A program made the position numbers and the translations under genes. Positions 2,937-62,064 of a DNA stretch of 64,000 bases are shown here, piece by piece. The stretch lies in sequence record NC_023593.1; one strand, given 5' to 3'. The first letter of the stretch is position 1. Every line of letters starts with the position of its first letter. The notes under the pieces were generated by a model. It was not told the origin of the DNA. It made no database searches and was given only the letters and a program-made list of their open reading frames with translations. This stretch comes from Escherichia phage KBNP1711.

Positions 2937-3155
2937 ATGAAAATGATGAAACAAATCAGTTATGGGTTAGCTTGTGTTGCTACCGGTTTTGCTGTGTCAG
3001 TGGCTGTTCCTGTTAACGCTGTGCATCCTCTGGTAACACAACCTGCACCTGTTGAGAAATTGAGTGCATCATGCAAGCAGCGTACAATTCAAAATAATCT
3101 TGTGGTTATTTGTCCGGACTCTGATTCTAGTGCTCTGAGAAATATGCTTCAGTAA
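2937..3155 (+). CDS. small exported protein (signal peptide, two Cys)
   Basis: MKMMKQISYGLACVATGFAVSVAVPVNA signal-like N-terminus; TAGGAGA 9 nt upstream of ATG 2937. Confidence 0.4.
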   Translation: MKMMKQISYGLACVATGFAVSVAVPVNAVHPLVTQPAPVEKLSASCKQRTIQNNLVVICPDSDSSALRNMLQ

Positions 3156-3185
3156 TTCAGGGCTGACTAGAAAGGGAGGTGAAAA

Positions 3186-3677
3186 ATGGATAATGTCGCA
3201 TTGCCACCGATACAACTGAGCTTAAGCCCAGAAGGGATGGAATTCATCATGAAGCATGAAGGTATGAGAACTCGTGCTTACCAAGATTCCGCAGGTATCT
3301 GGACGATATGTGTTGGGGCTACGCGCGATATGAATGGGTATCCAGTTAGACAGGGATTAACGTATTCTATAGAGGATTGTCTAGCTCTGCTAGATAGAGA
3401 CACACAAGACTCTGTTCGTGCCACTCAGAAAAATATTAGGGTTCCTTTGTTAACCCACGAGTTTGATGCTCTCACCTCTTTCAACTTCAACGTTGGTGGT
3501 GGAGCTTTATCAACTTCTAAACTTAGGAAAGTTATTAACGGGGATGTGAAGGGTGATGTTTATTCTGAGTTCCTCCGTTGGGATAAAATTACAGTTAAAG
3601 GTAAGAAGATTAGTAGTCCGGGGTTGAAGAATCGTAGAACTGCTGAAGCTGATCTTTACACTGAAGGTAAATACTAA
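3186..3677 (+). CDS. lysozyme (glycoside hydrolase family 24-like muramidase)
   Basis: EGMEFIMKHEGMRTRAYQDSAGIWTICVGAT motif typical of phage GH24 lysozymes; GGGAGGTG RBS. Confidence 0.8.
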   Translation: MDNVALPPIQLSLSPEGMEFIMKHEGMRTRAYQDSAGIWTICVGATRDMNGYPVRQGLTYSIEDCLALLDRDTQDSVRATQKNIRVPLLTHEFDALTSFNFNVGGGALSTSKLRKVINGDVKGDVYSEFLRWDKITVKGKKISSPGLKNRRTAEADLYTEGKY

Positions 3678-14095: not shown

Positions 14096-14160
14096 GACCT
14101 AAGTCCTGCCTTCTATAATGTATATAGGGGGTAGGACATTTTTATTTATAAGGAGACGTT

Positions 14161-22052: not shown

Positions 22053-22262
22053 TTATACGCTGATCAAGTAAATAGCCGTTTCGGGGTTTGGTGTGTGTTG
22101 TTGTGGTGTTCCGAGGATACGAATCCACTCATCGTTTTCTGGTTCGTAATACAACCAAGCATCTGTGAATTTGAAAGTTTTTCCAAACACTTTGTTATCG
22201 TGTTCCCAAATTACGTGAACATTTCGAGTTCCTTGTGGTAGAACTGATTGCGCTCTAATCAT
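22053..22262 (-). CDS. hypothetical protein
   Basis: 69-aa ORF packed between neighbours. Confidence 0.35.
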   Translation of the reverse strand: MIRAQSVLPQGTRNVHVIWEHDNKVFGKTFKFTDAWLYYEPENDEWIRILGTPQQHTPNPETAIYLISV

Positions 22263-22519
22263 TGGATACCTCTTTCTTTCAGAGCCTCTATTAACCCGTT
22301 GTGGTTAGCAGCACACTCTGTGTATTGGTCTTGATACCACTCTAGTGTTGTTGATAGTGCAACACCTTGTGGACCTTCTAGCATCGGTAAATCTACCCTA
22401 CACTCAGCTTTTAGGTTTGTTGGTAAGGGCATTAATTGCCTGCTGTTGTCGCTCATTGAACAACTTGACATACTCATCACTAGCGCAAACATTATAAAAA
22501 ACTGGCTTAGTCTTTTCAT
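22259..22519 (-). CDS. lipoprotein, o-spanin candidate
   Basis: MKRLSQFFIMFALVMSMSSC signal with lipobox-like MSSC followed by Pro-containing segment; starts inside the upstream gene in another frame. Confidence 0.4.
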   Translation of the reverse strand: MKRLSQFFIMFALVMSMSSCSMSDNSRQLMPLPTNLKAECRVDLPMLEGPQGVALSTTLEWYQDQYTECAANHNGLIEALKERGIQ

Positions 22520-22754
22520 AGTGCATCTCTTTGTAAACTGTCTCAGTGTTCTTCTTCCAGTCTGATAGACCATTGAGAACTCTCATAGCAACCTCATCAG
22601 CTGCTTTGTTTCTCTCTATCTCTAATTCTTGCTGATGTTTCTCTTTGTCCAGATTGTTACTATCTGTTTGGTATTCGTTAAACTTCATACCACCAAAGAA
22701 CACAAGAGCTGAAAAGACGATGAACCCTAAGTTATCGCTTAACGTGTTTTGCAT
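22404..22754 (-). CDS. membrane-anchored coiled-coil protein, i-spanin candidate
   Basis: ATG 22754 with GGAGA RBS; one N-terminal TM segment (LGFIVFSALVFFGG) then charged helical region; overlapped by the lipoprotein ORF. Confidence 0.45.
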   Translation of the reverse strand: MQNTLSDNLGFIVFSALVFFGGMKFNEYQTDSNNLDKEKHQQELEIERNKAADEVAMRVLNGLSDWKKNTETVYKEMHYEKTKPVFYNVCASDEYVKLFNERQQQAINALTNKPKS

Positions 22755-22772
22755 ATTATCTCCAACGAAAAA

Positions 22773-22790
22773 AGCCACCCGAAGGTGGCT
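22773..22790 (-). terminator. - strand terminator after SSB gene (agccacc-cgaa-ggtggct)
   Basis: 7-bp stem with T-run on the - strand side. Confidence 0.45.
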
Positions 22791-56249: not shown

Positions 56250-56507
56250 CTACTTACCTTTATTGGTAATTACTGCATCTGGGATAAGGATTACAGGAAG
56301 ACTCGAATCAAGCTTCATAACCTGATTAGTACTTAAACTAAGTACAACTGTTCCAGAATCTTTCTTGTTTGACTCTGTTACGTGTGGAGTAAATAAACCA
56401 ACAACCAAATAGTGACCGAAGCGTGTAGCTTTAACTTGGAATACATCGCCAAGCTTTAAATCACCAACTGTAAGATCTGGGTCTTTTAGTTCAAGATCAA
56501 TCTTCAT
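56250..56507 (-). CDS. small protein, paralog family A
   Basis: Family motif (LKLGDVFQV). Confidence 0.4.
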   Translation of the reverse strand: MKIDLELKDPDLTVGDLKLGDVFQVKATRFGHYLVVGLFTPHVTESNKKDSGTVVLSLSTNQVMKLDSSLPVILIPDAVITNKGK

Positions 56508-56757
56508 CTTTAGCCTCGATGTTAGTTATGTGGAGATCATTACGAACTTGGCAGACTTCATCACGCTTAATAGGGACTAGCTTTCCAGTGACAACATCAA
56601 CGCAGTTCACGTAATTGTCTGCGTATAAAGAGTCGGTTCGAATATAAAGGAACCCTTTAGACTCAAAGAGAACCCCCGGCTTCATATTATTTAAGCGAAG
56701 CATTGTACGGTTAGATTTAATATTAACCTTCACTATTGATCTCCTGTTGCTTGGCAA
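56497..56757 (-). CDS. small protein, paralog family A (divergent)
   Basis: Family motif (MKPGVLFESKGFLYIR). Confidence 0.35.
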   Translation of the reverse strand: MPSNRRSIVKVNIKSNRTMLRLNNMKPGVLFESKGFLYIRTDSLYADNYVNCVDVVTGKLVPIKRDEVCQVRNDLHITNIEAKDED

Positions 56758-57028
56758 TAGCTACTCGCAAGTCTTCATTAGCACGAGCAAGGCGTTTAAC
56801 TTCATGATCAAGGCTGATAAGGCGCTTATTTCTATCCTCAACCTGTTCAACCAGATCAAAAAGCTCAAATCTCACCTTTTCTGTATACATCTCCTCTACT
56901 TTAACCAGACTGTTATAGCGACGTTCCCAGCTGGCTGCTTTGTTTCTTAGGATAATAAAACCCAACACAGCAACAGTTAACAGCAATACAAGTAAGAATT
57001 TATATACTTCAATACTCATCTTATTCAC
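56723..57028 (-). CDS. type II membrane protein with coiled-coil ectodomain
   Basis: One TM (FLLVLLLTVAVLGFIIL) then heptad-rich charged helix; follows the SleB-like hydrolase gene. Confidence 0.4.
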   Translation of the reverse strand: MNKMSIEVYKFLLVLLLTVAVLGFIILRNKAASWERRYNSLVKVEEMYTEKVRFELFDLVEQVEDRNKRLISLDHEVKRLARANEDLRVAIAKQQEINSEG

Positions 57029-57217
57029 CTTTAAAGTAAGTTATTATAAGAAATATTATTTAGAATTATTATTTTCTAAACATAATTTCTATAATCTTTT
57101 TCAGAGGTCTATATACAGTCATTACCCCTAGTTCCAAATTGCTTCCACTTTTCAGCGACTATTTTCTAAGTCGCTGTTTTATAAGGGAATTTAGTTTGTC
57201 AATTCTGGCACCTATGA

Positions 57218-57607
57218 TTATTCATGAGCATCATTATTGAACACTAAATCACCACAATACATCGGATTGGTATACCACTTTGGCACCCCCTCGCTCTTAC
57301 TCTGAAAGTAGGTTCCACTATACAGAGGAACATAATTCTTCTTGAGAGCACGTCTAGCAAGCTGCTCGCTTTCTCTTATGGCTTGTTTAGTCATAGGATT
57401 ATCATCACGAATCAGCTTTACATAACGTTTATAAGGTTTCTCCTGTTTTAATAGTACCGGAATCCACTCAAACTGGTTCTTTTGTCTTATCACCTGTTCA
57501 GCGGTCAGTTTTCGTTGGGCCATTCTATTTATCACGGTATCCGCAACTAAAGCCTTACATGCGGTTGGCTGATTCCCTGCCTCATAATAAATAGTCAATG
57601 TCAACAT
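57218..57607 (-). CDS. cell wall hydrolase (SleB/Hydrolase_2-like)
   Basis: IYYEAGNQPTACKALVADTVINRMAQ...QFEW resembles the SleB-type hydrolase core. Confidence 0.55.
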   Translation of the reverse strand: MLTLTIYYEAGNQPTACKALVADTVINRMAQRKLTAEQVIRQKNQFEWIPVLLKQEKPYKRYVKLIRDDNPMTKQAIRESEQLARRALKKNYVPLYSGTYFQSKSEGVPKWYTNPMYCGDLVFNNDAHE

Positions 57608-57687
57608 TAGCTGGGCCGTTGTTATCAGAACTTGATACCTCCTGTTTTACGGGCATAAAAAAGCCCCAGCCGTAGCCGGGGCGGTTA

Positions 57688-57810
57688 TTAACGTGATACT
57701 GCTTCCATGAATCCTATCATAAGTATCAATAAGGTGATAATAACACCAAAAAGCATACCACATAGGAAGAAAAATCCACCTTCACCTAGATATGAAATAG
57801 CTGATTCCAC
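57688..57810 (-). CDS. small hydrophobic membrane protein (40 aa), holin-like candidate
   Basis: GTG start with AGGAG 6 nt upstream; almost entirely hydrophobic; immediately upstream of the hydrolase. Confidence 0.35.
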   Translation of the reverse strand: MESAISYLGEGGFFFLCGMLFGVIITLLILMIGFMEAVSR

Positions 57811-57831
57811 AGATAACTCCTACAGCAACAC

Positions 57832-57853
57832 AAAAAGCCGCTCAAAGGCGGCT
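57832..57853 (-). terminator. - strand terminator (agccgc-tcaaag-gcggct + T run)
   Basis: 6-bp stem; T-run on - strand. Confidence 0.45.
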
Positions 57854-57929: not shown

Positions 57930-58373
57930 TTACTTAACTCTTGCCTCTTTGATAGGGTCAATATACTTTTCAACTCCCCACTTATGTTTGCTGTCTGCGT
58001 AGAATACGTCAGGTGCACACTGGCTTGTTTTAGGGAAGGCTTGCGGGTCTTTGGTGCTCCCTTTAAACTTCTGTTTACCACGGGTGCGACCATTACAGAA
58101 GATTTCTAACTTCTTCTCTTCTTCTGTTTTAGCTCCCCCGCTCTGTAACAAAGAGCGTTTATGATCAGCTAACAATAACGCATCAGCACGATGAACGCGA
58201 TGGCCTACACGTTTTGCCACACTAGAAGGAATATGAGATTCAGCCTCAGCCCTTGCAGCACGACGTTTTAAACTACGCTTACTGACGTGATTGGTTGCCT
58301 TTGGTTTTTCTTTCTCCAGTTCAGAGATAGCAAAACAGCGCCCGCCCTTCATGCTGATTTTAGATTTAGCCAT
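57930..58373 (-). CDS. basic Lys/Arg-rich protein
   Basis: 147-aa ORF. Confidence 0.4.
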   Translation of the reverse strand: MAKSKISMKGGRCFAISELEKEKPKATNHVSKRSLKRRAARAEAESHIPSSVAKRVGHRVHRADALLLADHKRSLLQSGGAKTEEEKKLEIFCNGRTRGKQKFKGSTKDPQAFPKTSQCAPDVFYADSKHKWGVEKYIDPIKEARVK

Positions 58374-60108: not shown

Positions 60109-62064
60109 CTTTCAATTGTAAGGGCACTATGCCCCGCTCTCTATGAGCTTTTTAAGTCGCCATTGACTTATCAATATCCACTCATTGTTAAGTAATTATT
60201 GATAAGTGGGGCGGTCTTATCAGAAGTTAACCTTGCCGCCCCTTTATCTGTGATGTTTCATCTGGTATCTTTAATTAGTCGCTATAAACGAAGCCGACCT
60301 GATAGCGATGATCAATCATCACAATAAGGCAGTGCGTCCGACTCTAATTAGTTACTTTATTGTAACCGTCGGCAATATCGTCTACTTTGCTTTCGCTCTC
60401 GCCTATCCTTTTATACTAACTCTCAATCGCTAACCATCGCCCACTACGGGAGGTTATTGCGAAAGAGTCATTAGCCGTCTAATATTCCGACGTTTTATAT
60501 CTTTCGGCAAGTTTACTACATAACCCGACTATGTACTTTCATCTTGTGATGAATCTCAAGCCGTTCGCATCGTAAACGTTCACACTAAACCTTATTGTTA
60601 AATAGCAATTTGCCACTTTTTAACCACTCCCCGCCGCTCTCAATTGAGCGTTAATTAGTCGGGCTTGCCTACCCTGATTAACTTCTTTCACTGTAGCACC
60701 ATGTTAGCGATGGCCGCCGCTACCCTTAACCGTGGGCGATTAGTTTAAGCCTTTGCGTGTACTCAATGAATCCGCTTATCAGTGGTGACGTTTCCAGTTA
60801 AGGGATTGTGAGATTGTTTTCTCTGATAGTCTAGAGAATCTCACACCGTTTTATCTGGTATGCTGTCCGATGGTTATTATCTTCCAGCATATTTAACCGA
60901 TATAGGAGAATGTTTAAATTGTTAAAGAGCGGTAAATCTATCAACGTGCTTTCTCACGTTATGCAACTGTTAGCCGTTGTTACGCTTTTCACTGAAGCGG
61001 TGATTTGCTTAAGTGGTGCTCATTATGGACCATGTTGTTTTTGCCGTCAATCACTTTTTTAATCTTTTTCGTCGTTCCCGCTATTGGGAGGATATATCAA
61101 CCCGCTTTATTGGGTTGAAGATTAAGCGATGAGGCTTAACCCATGATTCATACTGTTAAAGAGCGTTTAGCCTTTTATAGTGTCTGCTAATCACTGCATC
61201 ATTAAAGGCTTACTTATTCATTAACGGGGCGCCTAAGCCCGAACTACCCGCTGCACTATGTGCCACCTTTCCCGCGATACGTTGATTTGGGAACTAGTTA
61301 ACGTTGTTTTGTTAACTTGTGGTTAGTATGGACTACCTTAACCACGTTTGCAACCTCTTTTTTATCATCTTCTTTTATTCTTTTCCCTTATCTCGCGTGA
61401 ATCTATGCGAAAGGGCAAGATGATAAGTCTGATTTGTCTTTTAGGAATCTAGTGCGCTTTCAAGCATTGACCATTTGAAAGTATCGAACAAATGAGGCTT
61501 ATTTTGTTGCTCATCGTCCGCCTGTTCACGTATGAATCAGGAATCAATTCTAGTGGTCAACTAAGCGCCTTATAGTAATGACGTTCCCGCCACCTGTAAG
61601 ACAAATCATATTTTTAAAGAGCGGGATTTTTCAAGTCATCGCTGACTATGCTCACTATATATCAGGCTTTTTCCGGTGTCAATACTCTTTTTCAAGTATT
61701 TTCACTTTCTAGCCTGATTTTTAAAGAGCGGGGCAATTTCTTGCCTTGTATGTTTTACATCGTACCCGATGAAATGAAGTATACATTAATCAGATGAGGT
61801 TGCAATAGGGTAAAGCAAATTATTTTAAACTTTTTGAAAGGTGGGAAGTATAAGAGAATGCGCGCGGGATAACATACCCAAAACAGGCTGTAAATCACTT
61901 TCTAACGTCCTGTAAGCCATTCTAATGAGCTAAAAGGAGGCAAGGTATACAATCACCTTAGAAAAGAAAAAAGCCTCATAGCGAGGCTTACAGGAAGGAT
62001 TAGAGAATCAGATAGATTATGACCATAGGCATGACCACGGCACAATATAAGAGAAAGATTAAGC
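60109..62064. other. 1.9-kb ORF-free region with dispersed short repeats; candidate origin, terminal or regulatory region
   Basis: No ORF of 60 aa or more in any frame; four TTAAAGAGCG copies (60931, 61165, 61614, 61731); inverted repeat CTTATCAATA/TATTGATAAG at 60176-60214. Confidence 0.5.

Follow-up and report, generated by a model that had tools for sequence, protein, structure and literature searches.

The genome of Escherichia phage KBNP1711 (NC_023593.1), which sequence comparison places in Kuravirus, among the phiEco32-like coliphages, poses a simple question: Does a phage that encodes an ordinary lysozyme carry a second lysis cassette elsewhere? In the window analysed here, a single stretch of 64,000 nucleotides, a sequence-only reading had listed three consecutive open reading frames on the minus strand, for a 40-aa hydrophobic peptide (57688-57810), a SleB-like cell wall hydrolase (57218-57607) and a type II membrane coiled-coil protein (56723-57028), and had grouped them as a second lysis-like cassette. 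All three frames were confirmed on that strand and at those positions.

Lysis genes elsewhere and the leftward operon

The first part of the answer lies in the other lysis genes of the phage. On the plus strand, the frame at 2937-3155 matches phrog_11161, labelled 'holin' (E=1.6e-46), and its product has one N-terminal transmembrane (TM) segment and a Cys-containing tail. Next to it, at 3186-3677, stands the GH24 lysozyme that the sequence-only reading had correctly recognised (PF00959, E=4.5e-32), which is, by its place beside the holin, the obvious endolysin candidate. This pair sits within the late tail-gene block, 54 kb from the SleB-type hydrolase; relatives annotate holin and endolysin at the equivalent of 2937..3677, and the S1 table of phage SU10 supports these assignments. 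On the minus strand, an i-spanin ORF at 22404-22778 (phrog_1152 'Rz-like spanin', E=7.7e-38) overlaps an o-spanin lipoprotein at 22259-22519 that was recovered by a lipobox scan, and both phiEco32 and KBNP1711 have been counted among the phages with overlapped spanins (Kongari et al. 2018, PMC6139136). A complete and normal lysis set, as predicted from sequence, is consequently found outside the hydrolase locus. The holin of this set being putative, the true holin could be located elsewhere.

Two different muralytic enzymes are indeed encoded, to judge from their PF07486 and GH24 sequences. It had further been proposed that one of them is the endolysin and the other is virion-associated or specialised; the former part agrees with the position of the GH24 gene beside the holin, while neither a virion-associated enzyme nor one specialised for another cell-wall type finds support. 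Podophages frequently carry ejection-associated muralytic activity, and some phages fuse SleB-type domains into presumed virion proteins of >1,000 aa, which would fit a hydrolase digesting the wall locally at genome ejection. However, the KBNP1711 hydrolase is a stand-alone 136-aa domain whose early operon lies a long way from the structural genes, and neither it nor the GH24 enzyme has a counterpart among the 34 proteins of the SU10 particle/lysate proteome. In addition, the accessible portions of the paper on the CsCl-purified virion proteome of Privateer make no mention of a SleB-like hydrolase. We regard a virion-associated role as extremely improbable.

The hydrolase locus itself appears to belong to an early unit. 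Three strong sigma70-type early promoters, found on the minus strand by a promoter and terminator scan (61022..61682), are predicted to drive a leftward operon that holds the 40-aa ORF, the hydrolase and the gene for the coiled-coil protein (98 aa). The same-strand elements upstream of the hydrolase are these promoters, at 61.0-61.7 kb, and terminators at 59.16, 57.84 and 57.67 kb, the first of which is an intrinsic terminator at 59177-59150 with an RNA fold of -18.7 kcal/mol. From 31 to 61.8 kb the minus strand has no exact copy of the late-promoter element TAATGTATA; the copies with one mismatch, at 35 and 38 kb, are a long way downstream of the hydrolase locus, and ahead of the hydrolase the promoter scan found no late promoter of gp36 type. 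An Rfam scan of 55.5-59.5 kb returned no match reaching threshold. In published maps, CDS69-125 of SU10 and the homologous arm of phiEco32 are assigned to the early class (PMC4281155, PMC8948821), with the same promoter and terminator layout in both phages (PMC4281155), the temporal class of the phiEco32 arm being that given in later papers which cite the primary phiEco32 work. Together, the promoter layout and these maps suggest early expression of all three genes from one sigma70-driven operon and not from a late unit, an arrangement which runs against the proposed cassette.

The SleB-type hydrolase and its start codon

The hydrolase, a homologue of phiEco32 gp117 with 136 residues encoded at 57218..57628 on the minus strand, was characterised by Pfam, profile, fold and start-codon comparisons. 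It matches Pfam Hydrolase_2 (PF07486) with E=1.1e-7 and 32.9 bits, against a curated gathering score of 27. A search of the PDB with the single sequence gave no match, and SleB was reached only when a profile of the hydrolase and its relatives was used, which matches the SleB catalytic domains 4FET and 4F55 with E about 3e-16; PF07486 is carried by all 120 matches listed of the 2,259 found with the hydrolase profile. The catalytic Glu is E16 (codon 57581-57583) in the motif I-Y-Y-E-A-G-N-Q, which the profile alignment superimposes on the N-terminal helix motif Y-G-E of SleB. Loss of the catalytic residues would have undermined the identification, and this Glu is invariant in two alignments of 26 and 38 homologues. 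The AlphaFold model (pLDDT 79.9, pTM 0.78) finds 4FET and 4F55 as its best Foldseek matches in the PDB (probability 0.99-1.0, TM 0.53-0.58), with no other convincing match there besides SleB, and its matches in BFVD are SleB-type phage hydrolases. The gene belongs to the core, being present in about 97 of 98 related records, and its dN/dS of 0.07-0.2 indicates purifying selection. By sequence and model, then, the protein is predicted to be a catalytically intact lytic transglycosylase domain of SleB type, and public records already annotate it as a cell wall hydrolase.

If the SleB/Hydrolase_2 identity claimed by the sequence-only reading stands, the start codon that it had listed, ATG 57607, probably does not. 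The most likely start is CTG 57628, because the position of the ATG reads CTT in 4E8, EP335 and ECBP2, the peptide LITTAQL encoded upstream of it is conserved with synonymous changes, a strong Shine-Dalgarno sequence (AGGAGG, 57643-57638, minus strand) lies 9 nt before the CTG, and relatives at 66-74% identity have a TTG start at exactly the same codon. This comparison covers 8-9 Kuravirus loci and two distant relatives; a pattern scan of IMG/VR for the CTG start returned only 3 contigs.

With SleB/CwlJ of Bacillus, a spore cortex lytic transglycosylase (PF07486, 4FET, 4F55), the hydrolase shares the catalytic domain, the fold and the Glu in the N-terminal helix, at only about 18% identity. 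SleB has an N-terminal peptidoglycan-binding domain and a signal peptide, whereas the phage protein lacks both and contains an extra helical insert, of low pLDDT, around residues 50-75. The wall of its host, unlike the substrate of SleB, is devoid of muramic-delta-lactam, and therefore the substrate of the hydrolase must be ordinary Gram-negative peptidoglycan. Neither a signal peptide nor a TM segment was found in the protein, in contrast with environmental homologues at 30% identity that do carry an export signal or TM segment. A signal-anchor of SAR type was considered for the N-terminus and rejected for KBNP1711: The 15 uncharged residues there average about 1.1 in Kyte-Doolittle hydropathy, and the AlphaFold model puts them in helix 1, which bears the catalytic Glu. 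The N-termini of the corresponding proteins of phages 7-11 and GAP52 are more hydrophobic.

These last proteins belong to a wider set. The C3 podophages Privateer, GAP52, A24, CsaP_009, BUCT695 and 7-11, of the Grimontviridae, have an M15 peptidase of T5 type as endolysin and retain a SleB-like gene in the early arm. Orthologues of the KBNP1711 hydrolase at 32-36% identity are gene 111 of 7-11 and gp023 of GAP52, both recorded as 'putative endolysin', and QIN94891 of Privateer, recorded as 'hydrolase'. In these three phages, as in KBNP1711, the second lytic protein with PF07486 lies in the early leftward arm and always accompanies another endolysin, the differences being that the partner is an M15 peptidase instead of a GH24 enzyme and that the CTG start is that of Kuravirus. 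By contrast, the PF07486 proteins of Phapecoctavirus and LNA4, likewise second lytic proteins of virulent phages of enterobacteria, have about 190 residues and an N-terminal extension, unlike the hydrolase discussed here.

The neighbouring membrane proteins

Upstream of the hydrolase, the gp120 homologue (57930-58373) is followed by an intrinsic terminator on the minus strand (57836..57853, found by scan; fold -13.9 kcal/mol, z = -5.3) that is conserved in relatives and constitutes the upstream border of a variable hot spot. Within it lies the hydrophobic ORF of 40 residues (57688..57810, minus strand), with a single TM segment, a GTG start and a Shine-Dalgarno AGGAG at 57821-57817, 6 nt upstream of the start. 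The hairpin that had been noticed after this ORF is real: It is an intrinsic terminator (57663..57682, minus strand, -18.8 kcal/mol) with an 8-bp stem of which 7 pairs are G-C, a T6 tail that stops about 13 nt short of the hydrolase Shine-Dalgarno, and conservation in all relatives aligned. The intervening segment of 138 bp (57683-57820), which forms the module of the 40-aa ORF, is missing in 4E8, phiEco32, EP335 and ECBP2; besides KBNP1711, the ORF occurs only in 172-1 and ev_rybdy3/8, or 4 of about 98 Kuravirus records, in alleles distinguished by 4 synonymous differences and 2 conservative replacements. The same site in other phages is occupied by an adhesin, an HTH protein or a 57-aa coiled coil, or is empty, and in 172-1 an XRE/HigA-like HTH gene directly follows the ORF. 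Described earlier as unannotated by the ORF track, the ORF is annotated in public records for KBNP1711 (YP_009008812.1) and 172-1 (YP_009208158.1), and corresponds exactly to CH16_gp118 of KBNP1711 and to phrog_38462. Its equation with gp118 of phiEco32 was rejected: That protein is not hydrophobic, its gene spans a terminator and tblastn similarity is nil. Rejected also was the idea that a small hydrophobic ORF recurs upstream of the hydrolase in other lineages, where the cargo is unrelated or absent.

Judged from this setting, the 40-aa ORF has the character of a moron-like accessory module in a recombination hot spot that separates the gp120 homologue from that of gp117, and its product is probably a small peptide of the inner membrane. 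As in other phage morons, the module is compact, ends at a terminator, is present in few genomes and occupies a site of variable cargo; it differs from them in that the promoter scan found no promoter of its own, and its expression would need read-through of the terminator ahead of it. What, then, could such a peptide do? It may be, possibly together with the 98-aa protein, an early membrane-acting accessory factor unrelated to the hydrolase, and superinfection exclusion, a type-I-toxin-like action or interference with host membrane or division might be its function. In favour of this proposal are the self-contained nature of the ORF in a hot spot that houses other morons (the adhesin, the HTH gene of 172-1), its resemblance, with 40 residues and one TM segment, to small membrane toxins, and the presence of both genes in the early operon. 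But the 40-aa ORF has no homologue of known function, no Pfam match above threshold and no match in PADLOC, and the missing promoter also weighs against it, leaving the proposal tentative and, on balance, doubtful.

Downstream of the hydrolase, across an A+T-rich spacer of 189 nt (57029..57217, minus strand), lies the gene for a membrane-anchored coiled-coil protein, the homologue of phiEco32 gp116 (56723..57019, minus strand; phrog_12154, E=7e-52). Its start is ATG 57019, not GTG 57028, giving 98 residues. Family members with 49-98% identity occur in 97 Kuravirus records, and a profile search among 1.84 billion representatives found only 3 clusters at E<1e-10, with its own family and coiled-coil noise but no remote homologues. 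PADLOC likewise gave no match for it. The 'DNA helicase' label that the protein carries in many Kuravirus records is spurious. In the spacer, the alignment of relatives shows a conserved motif GGTAATGACTGTATATAGACC at 57126-57106, and a hairpin lies at 57153-57176; TGTATATAG has just two copies in the window, the second of them within a gp36-type late promoter (14116-14127), and the record of 4E8 annotates a promoter in the equivalent spacer. This promoter-like GGTAATGACTGTATATAGACC ahead of the gene may give the 98-aa protein a timing other than 'early'.

As to the earlier description of this product as a type II membrane coiled-coil protein, the TM segment (about residues 8-24, 56948-56998) and the coiled coil are both present, whereas the type II topology is doubtful: The charge flanking the TM segment is 0 on the N side and about +4 on the C side, and by the positive-inside rule a cytoplasmic coiled coil is more likely than a periplasmic one. 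In outline, with a TM segment near the N-terminus and a coiled coil after it, the protein resembles the i-spanin of lambda Rz type, from which it differs in its predicted opposite topology and in having no o-spanin partner. A lipobox scan of the whole 64,000-nt window found no o-spanin lipobox near 56-58 kb, and none is present in the next ORF after the 98-aa gene, 56497-56757. An i-spanin function was accordingly rejected, the spanins proper lying at 22259-22778. The gene adjoins that of the hydrolase also in relatives whose version of it can hardly be aligned, while in the Grimontviridae 7-11, GAP52 and Privateer the hydrolase has no TM coiled-coil neighbour. On sequence grounds we see the 98-aa protein as a lineage-restricted orphan, the positional partner of the hydrolase within its own phage lineage only.

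Could these genes nevertheless make up a second functional cassette, with a holin or pinholin function for the 40-aa or 98-aa product, an endolysin function for the SleB-like enzyme and a spanin-like role for the 98-aa protein? Like holins, the two are small membrane proteins adjoining a muralytic gene; the genes for the hydrophobic peptide, the signal-less enzyme and the TM coiled-coil protein follow one another on a single strand, and the last two remain neighbours in distant relatives. The 98-aa protein, whose single TM segment and charged tail are compatible with a holin, weakly matches the 'holin' phrog_1296 (E=0.003, 18.5 bits), and the holin assigned at 2937-3155 is putative. Yet, apart from this weak match, neither protein shows significant similarity to any holin family, and in Pfam the 98-aa protein has no holin match, only a sub-threshold one to DUF7365. 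Most relatives do without the 40-aa ORF, and its product has no charged C-terminal tail of the holin kind, its TM segment being followed by just 6 residues (MEAVSR, net charge 0). Furthermore, the ORF is present in 4 records against about 97 for the hydrolase, is separated from the latter by a strong terminator and is replaced by unrelated cargo in other phages; the 98-aa protein has no lipoprotein partner in or beside its gene, its flanking charges favour a cytoplasmic coiled coil and it has no equivalent beside the hydrolase of the Grimontviridae; a holin-GH24 pair and overlapped spanins already exist elsewhere; and the genes sit in the early arm. A second functional cassette is, in our estimate, very unlikely. 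A functional link between the 98-aa protein and the hydrolase may nonetheless exist, given the match to phrog_1296 and the position kept in distant relatives.

What the hydrolase may do

The best explanation, to which we give a probability of about 0.5, is that the three are neighbouring genes of an early operon that form no lysis cassette, the hydrolase being an auxiliary, cytoplasmic and holin-dependent wall enzyme of low abundance. Its early and low expression, location, dependence on the holin and auxiliary lytic role are all deduced from the features described above. RNA polymerase would reach the hydrolase gene only after reading through three intrinsic terminators, translation would begin at a weak CTG codon, and because of this double restraint a small cytoplasmic pool would be present from early infection. 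The enzyme would get to the wall only once the membrane has been opened by the holin of the 2.9-kb locus, acting there alongside the GH24 endolysin, while the 40-aa peptide would be unconnected with it and the 98-aa protein would be a lineage-specific, membrane-tethered coiled coil.

Partial precedents come from classical coliphages. The lysozyme of T7, gp3.5, is an amidase and a class II product, and T4 e is a GH24 enzyme whose early transcripts are translationally masked. Both are encoded in early or middle units or transcribed from them and, as is proposed for the hydrolase, are cytoplasmic muralytic enzymes made in restrained amounts ahead of the late phase, but their folds differ from that of the SleB type, and the restraint would be exerted by terminators and a non-AUG start instead of the masking hairpin of T4 e.

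Two counterpoints to the auxiliary role deserve mention. A lytic transglycosylase and a GH24 muramidase cut the same glycosidic bond, and therefore an 'auxiliary endolysin' would be largely redundant in Kuravirus; strong purifying selection across two phage families hints, on the other hand, at a non-redundant role of the hydrolase. Moreover, terminators and a very weak start are odd for an enzyme needed in bulk.

These considerations lead to a different proposal, namely that the SleB-like protein acts early and outside lysis, either as a moonlighting regulator, much as T7 lysozyme is a regulator of T7 RNA polymerase, or as a factor of wall growth or division working with the 98-aa protein. 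It would account for the early-arm position in both Gordonclarkvirinae and Grimontviridae whatever the endolysin type, for the purifying selection despite the apparent redundancy with GH24, for an expression tightly limited by terminators and a conserved TTG/CTG start, and for a 98-aa neighbour that is conserved in position yet evolves fast, as expected of a host-interaction protein. Against it, an enzyme devoid of export signal cannot reach peptidoglycan early, the strict conservation of the catalytic Glu and its motif argues that catalysis matters, there is no sign of any binding partner, and Grimontviridae lack the TM coiled-coil neighbour. We judge this role unlikely. Somewhat less probable still is its fuller version, in which the enzyme would be an early-acting factor outside lysis, long kept across the C3 podophages of the two groups with any endolysin and with its output throttled; by analogy, such a factor might be a moonlighting regulator of the T7-lysozyme kind or might, with the 98-aa protein, manipulate wall synthesis or division.

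Under the preferred reading of an auxiliary, holin-dependent enzyme, the hydrolase locus is an ordinary and already annotated feature, and the 'second lysis cassette' does not stand. The gain for annotation consists in the probable start of the hydrolase at CTG 57628 and in the removal of a misleading helicase label from the 98-aa protein. The hot spot for cargo genes that separates the gp120 homologue from that of gp117 is also a possible insertion site for engineering coliphages that are therapeutic candidates. In biological terms, the early operon of an entire lineage of prolate podophages has retained a second hydrolase, of SleB type and devoid of a signal peptide, beside a different late endolysin, and a non-redundant or non-lytic role of this enzyme, if true, would be of interest to specialists of phage lysis.

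The trio and the canonical lysis genes

The segment 56400-58400 matched 98 phage records, all of phiEco32-like podophages (Kuravirus and relatives, Gordonclarkvirinae), with Escherichia phage 4E8 as the top match (94.6%). By synteny, the minus-strand trio at 56723-57810 comprises the homologues of phiEco32 gp117 (hydrolase) and gp116 (membrane protein), plus the gp120-gp117 gap with its 40-aa ORF (ORF40). The sequence-only reading had located the three ORFs and their hairpin correctly, and had interpreted them as a second lysis-like cassette besides the GH24 lysozyme at 3186-3677, which is indeed a real gene. The lysozyme and a holin homologue (phrog_11161) sit among tail genes at 2.9-3.7 kb, and at 22259-22778 the genes of an i-spanin and an o-spanin overlap, in agreement with a spanin census that includes phiEco32, NJ01, ECBP2, and KBNP1711 (PMC6139136). 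The canonical lysis set is therefore complete without the trio. The annotated holin (2937-3155, plus strand), with one TM segment at its N-terminus and a short C-terminal part that contains Cys, is a putative one, assigned from annotation and PHROG membership. The Privateer authors were unable to find a holin for the sister lineage.

The SleB-like hydrolase and its start codon

The SleB/Hydrolase_2-like assignment of the hydrolase passed all tests applied, its PF07486 match scoring above the gathering score. A profile built from 26 homologues matches the SleB catalytic domains 4FET and 4F55 (E about 3e-16) and contains an invariant I-Y-Y-E-A-G-N-Q motif aligning on the catalytic Glu of SleB. 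Of the PDB neighbours of the AlphaFold model (pLDDT 79.9), SleB alone is convincing; the viral structural neighbours of the model are SleB-type phage hydrolases, and dN/dS against six relatives is 0.07-0.2. From the SleB match, the invariant Glu motif, the fold and the dN/dS values it follows that the catalytic residues have not been lost; the SleB-type catalytic domain is intact, without export signal and under purifying selection. The label "cell wall hydrolase" is already present in several GenBank records, and in UniProt the orthologue of SU10 is entered as "Cell wall hydrolase SleB domain-containing protein".

No Shine-Dalgarno precedes the listed ATG (57607), which is replaced by CTT in 4E8, EP335, and ECBP2. 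The seven in-frame codons 5' of it (L-I-T-T-A-Q-L) are kept, with synonymous differences, at all Kuravirus loci examined. The in-frame CTG 57628 has a strong AGGAGG 9 nt upstream (site 57626-57643, minus strand), and metagenomic relatives with 66-74% identity have a 136-aa protein starting at the equivalent codon, which in their DNA is TTG. Together these features argue that the gene most likely spans 57218-57628 (minus strand), with non-AUG initiation at CTG 57628; TTG is likely the ancestral form of the start codon and CTG the form in this phage. In E. coli, by published codon-by-codon measurements, CTG initiates at no more than about 1% of the level seen with AUG. Public records place the start at an ATG or TTG 7-8 codons downstream of CTG 57628, and the EP335 RefSeq record annotates just a truncated 101-aa hydrolase ORF.

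The cargo gap and the membrane protein

ORF40, an exact match to KBNP1711 YP_009008812.1 (CH16_gp118), lies on a 138-bp segment (57683-57820) absent from 4E8, phiEco32, EP335, ECBP2, and NJ01, where about 52 bp or different cargo is present instead; within the phage collection searched, the segment recurs only in 172-1 and ev_rybdy3/8. Since the insert extends from the Shine-Dalgarno AGGAG, 6 nt 5' of the GTG, to just beyond the stop codon, ORF40 constitutes a gene-sized module. Its three alleles differ by 4 synonymous and 2 conservative replacement changes, a pattern with a probability of about 0.04 for non-coding DNA (rough binomial estimate), so that ORF40 is probably a genuine, though accessory, gene. 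Its peptide contains one TM segment with just six residues beyond it and thus no holin-type tail. Other phages hold unrelated cargo at the same site: a YadA/collagen-like adhesin in phiEco32, ORF40 plus an XRE/HigA-like HTH protein in 172-1, a 57-aa coiled-coil ORF in EP335 and ev_rybdy3, and none in 4E8. Judging from these sequences, the gp120-gp117 gap, with conserved terminators at its borders in the window (57663-57853) and in the relatives' loci L002 (3573-4506), L083 (1541-2036), and L085 (968-1141), is a moron/cargo hot spot.

The 98-aa membrane protein (exact match to KBNP1711 YP_009008810.1) is encoded at 56723-57019 on the minus strand, and its ORF begins at ATG 57019, 6 nt after the Shine-Dalgarno AAGGTG. 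It was found in 97 records at 49-98% identity and belongs to phrog_12154, with a single TM segment and a coiled coil; the label "DNA helicase" attached to this family in many GenBank/RefSeq Kuravirus records is, on the evidence of the sequence, which gives it no support, spurious. Among 1.84 billion representatives, a profile search revealed no remote homologues beyond its own family, and its sole lysis-related signal, a weak "holin" PHROG match (E=0.003), is probably compositional. Flanking charges of about 0 N-terminal and about +4 C-terminal to the TM segment, as also seen in two distant positional homologues, speak for a coiled coil located in the cytoplasm, contrary to the arrangement of an i-spanin; a lipobox scan found no lipoprotein ORF inside or adjoining the gene. 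With the holin-endolysin-spanin set complete elsewhere, ORF40 accessory and the 98-aa gene without a lipoprotein partner, the proposal that the trio forms a second lysis cassette becomes quite improbable.

A spacer motif, GGTAATG(A/CT)CTGTATATAGACC (57106-57126, minus strand), is conserved 5' of the 98-aa gene. There are just two copies of TGTATATAG in the window, the second lying within an exact TAATGTATA late-promoter element at 14116-14127 (plus strand). The motif may be a weak phage-sigma promoter; were it a true one, the 98-aa gene and those downstream would also be transcribed later in infection. A hairpin just past the hydrolase stop (57153-57176, -13.2 kcal/mol) carries a plus-strand T-run and hence would cause antisense rather than sense termination; phiEco32-type relatives do not conserve it.

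Probable early expression and coexistence with the endolysin

A promoter scan detected three strong sigma70-type promoters at 61.0-61.7 kb on the minus strand, with intrinsic terminators downstream of them at 59177-59150 (-18.7 kcal/mol), 57853-57836 (-13.9 kcal/mol), and 57682-57663 (-18.8 kcal/mol). The T-run of the last stops about 13 nt 5' of the hydrolase Shine-Dalgarno, leaving no room for a promoter. No exact copy of TAATGTATA, the phage sigma-factor element, was found on the minus strand over 31-61.8 kb, and one-mismatch copies at 35 and 38 kb (minus strand) are far downstream of the trio. SU10 has a matching promoter/terminator layout, and its early class, CDS69-125, includes the gp116/gp117 homologues CDS115/CDS116 (PMC4281155); the 7-11 paper, in its summarizing passage on the experimentally determined expression classes of phiEco32, agrees with the early assignment. 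An exact TAATGTATA lies at 61780-61788 (minus strand), amid the sigma70 early promoters heading the leftward operon, and overlaps a weak sigma70-like site; the phage sigma factor may re-read the early operon from it.

What, then, would an early cell wall hydrolase do? We consider that it would build up in the cytoplasm in small amounts, beginning early in infection, and gain access to the wall only once the holin fires, as a low-level supplement to the endolysin, a reading to which we assign a probability of about 0.5. Its weak point is that in Kuravirus the gene would be redundant with GH24 and yet is strongly conserved, which leaves room for a non-lytic early role, an unlikely one in our judgement. 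There are precedents: in T7, the gp3.5 lysozyme doubles as an RNA polymerase regulator; in T4, early transcripts of e are translationally masked. That one of the two muralytic enzymes is virion-associated, one of two options in the sequence-only reading, is hardly credible; neither is among the 34 proteins of the SU10 particle/lysate proteome.

Metagenomic relatives with 66-74% identity show the order gp120, long terminator-rich leader, hydrolase, about 200 nt and a TM-plus-coiled-coil ORF almost unalignable with the 98-aa protein; no such neighbour was found beside the SleB-like gene in Grimontviridae phages. The leader in two relatives' loci (L089 3374-4000, L091 3345-4000) is about 630 nt long, with two or three terminator hairpins and a conserved strong Shine-Dalgarno followed by a two-codon mini-ORF (ATG-CGN-stop).

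Hydrolase orthologues with 32-36% identity are present in other C3-morphotype podophages, namely 7-11, GAP52, A24, Privateer, CsaP_009, and Aeromonas phages, which do not have the GH24-holin pair; all those checked have a T5-type L-Ala-D-Glu peptidase endolysin in its place. In 7-11 the peptidase is gene 50 and the SleB-like protein gene 111 (accession numbering, anchored on sigma factor gene 47), and on the published map they would fall in the late leftward and early clusters, respectively. Privateer was described by lysis specialists, who name the peptidase endolysin and the SleB-like protein just "hydrolase". The Grimontviridae C3 podophages 7-11, GAP52, A24, Privateer, CsaP_009, and BUCT695 likewise have a pair of muralytic genes: a SleB-like gene in the early arm and a T5-type M15 peptidase, the latter probably within the late leftward cluster (loci L086 2974-3399, L094 9020-9412, L087, L088, and L093 4718-5110); some records label both "endolysin".

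Two lytic enzymes per genome (GH24 and PF07486) have previously been reported in other coliphages, and the finding is real but ordinary. What is new is that the hydrolase likely starts at CTG, that ORF40 occupies a hot spot, that the helicase label is a misannotation and that the SleB-like gene coexists throughout the lineage with a replaceable endolysin: with orthologues kept and the endolysin replaced, the SleB-like gene thus stays constant, and it is the late endolysin that varies.
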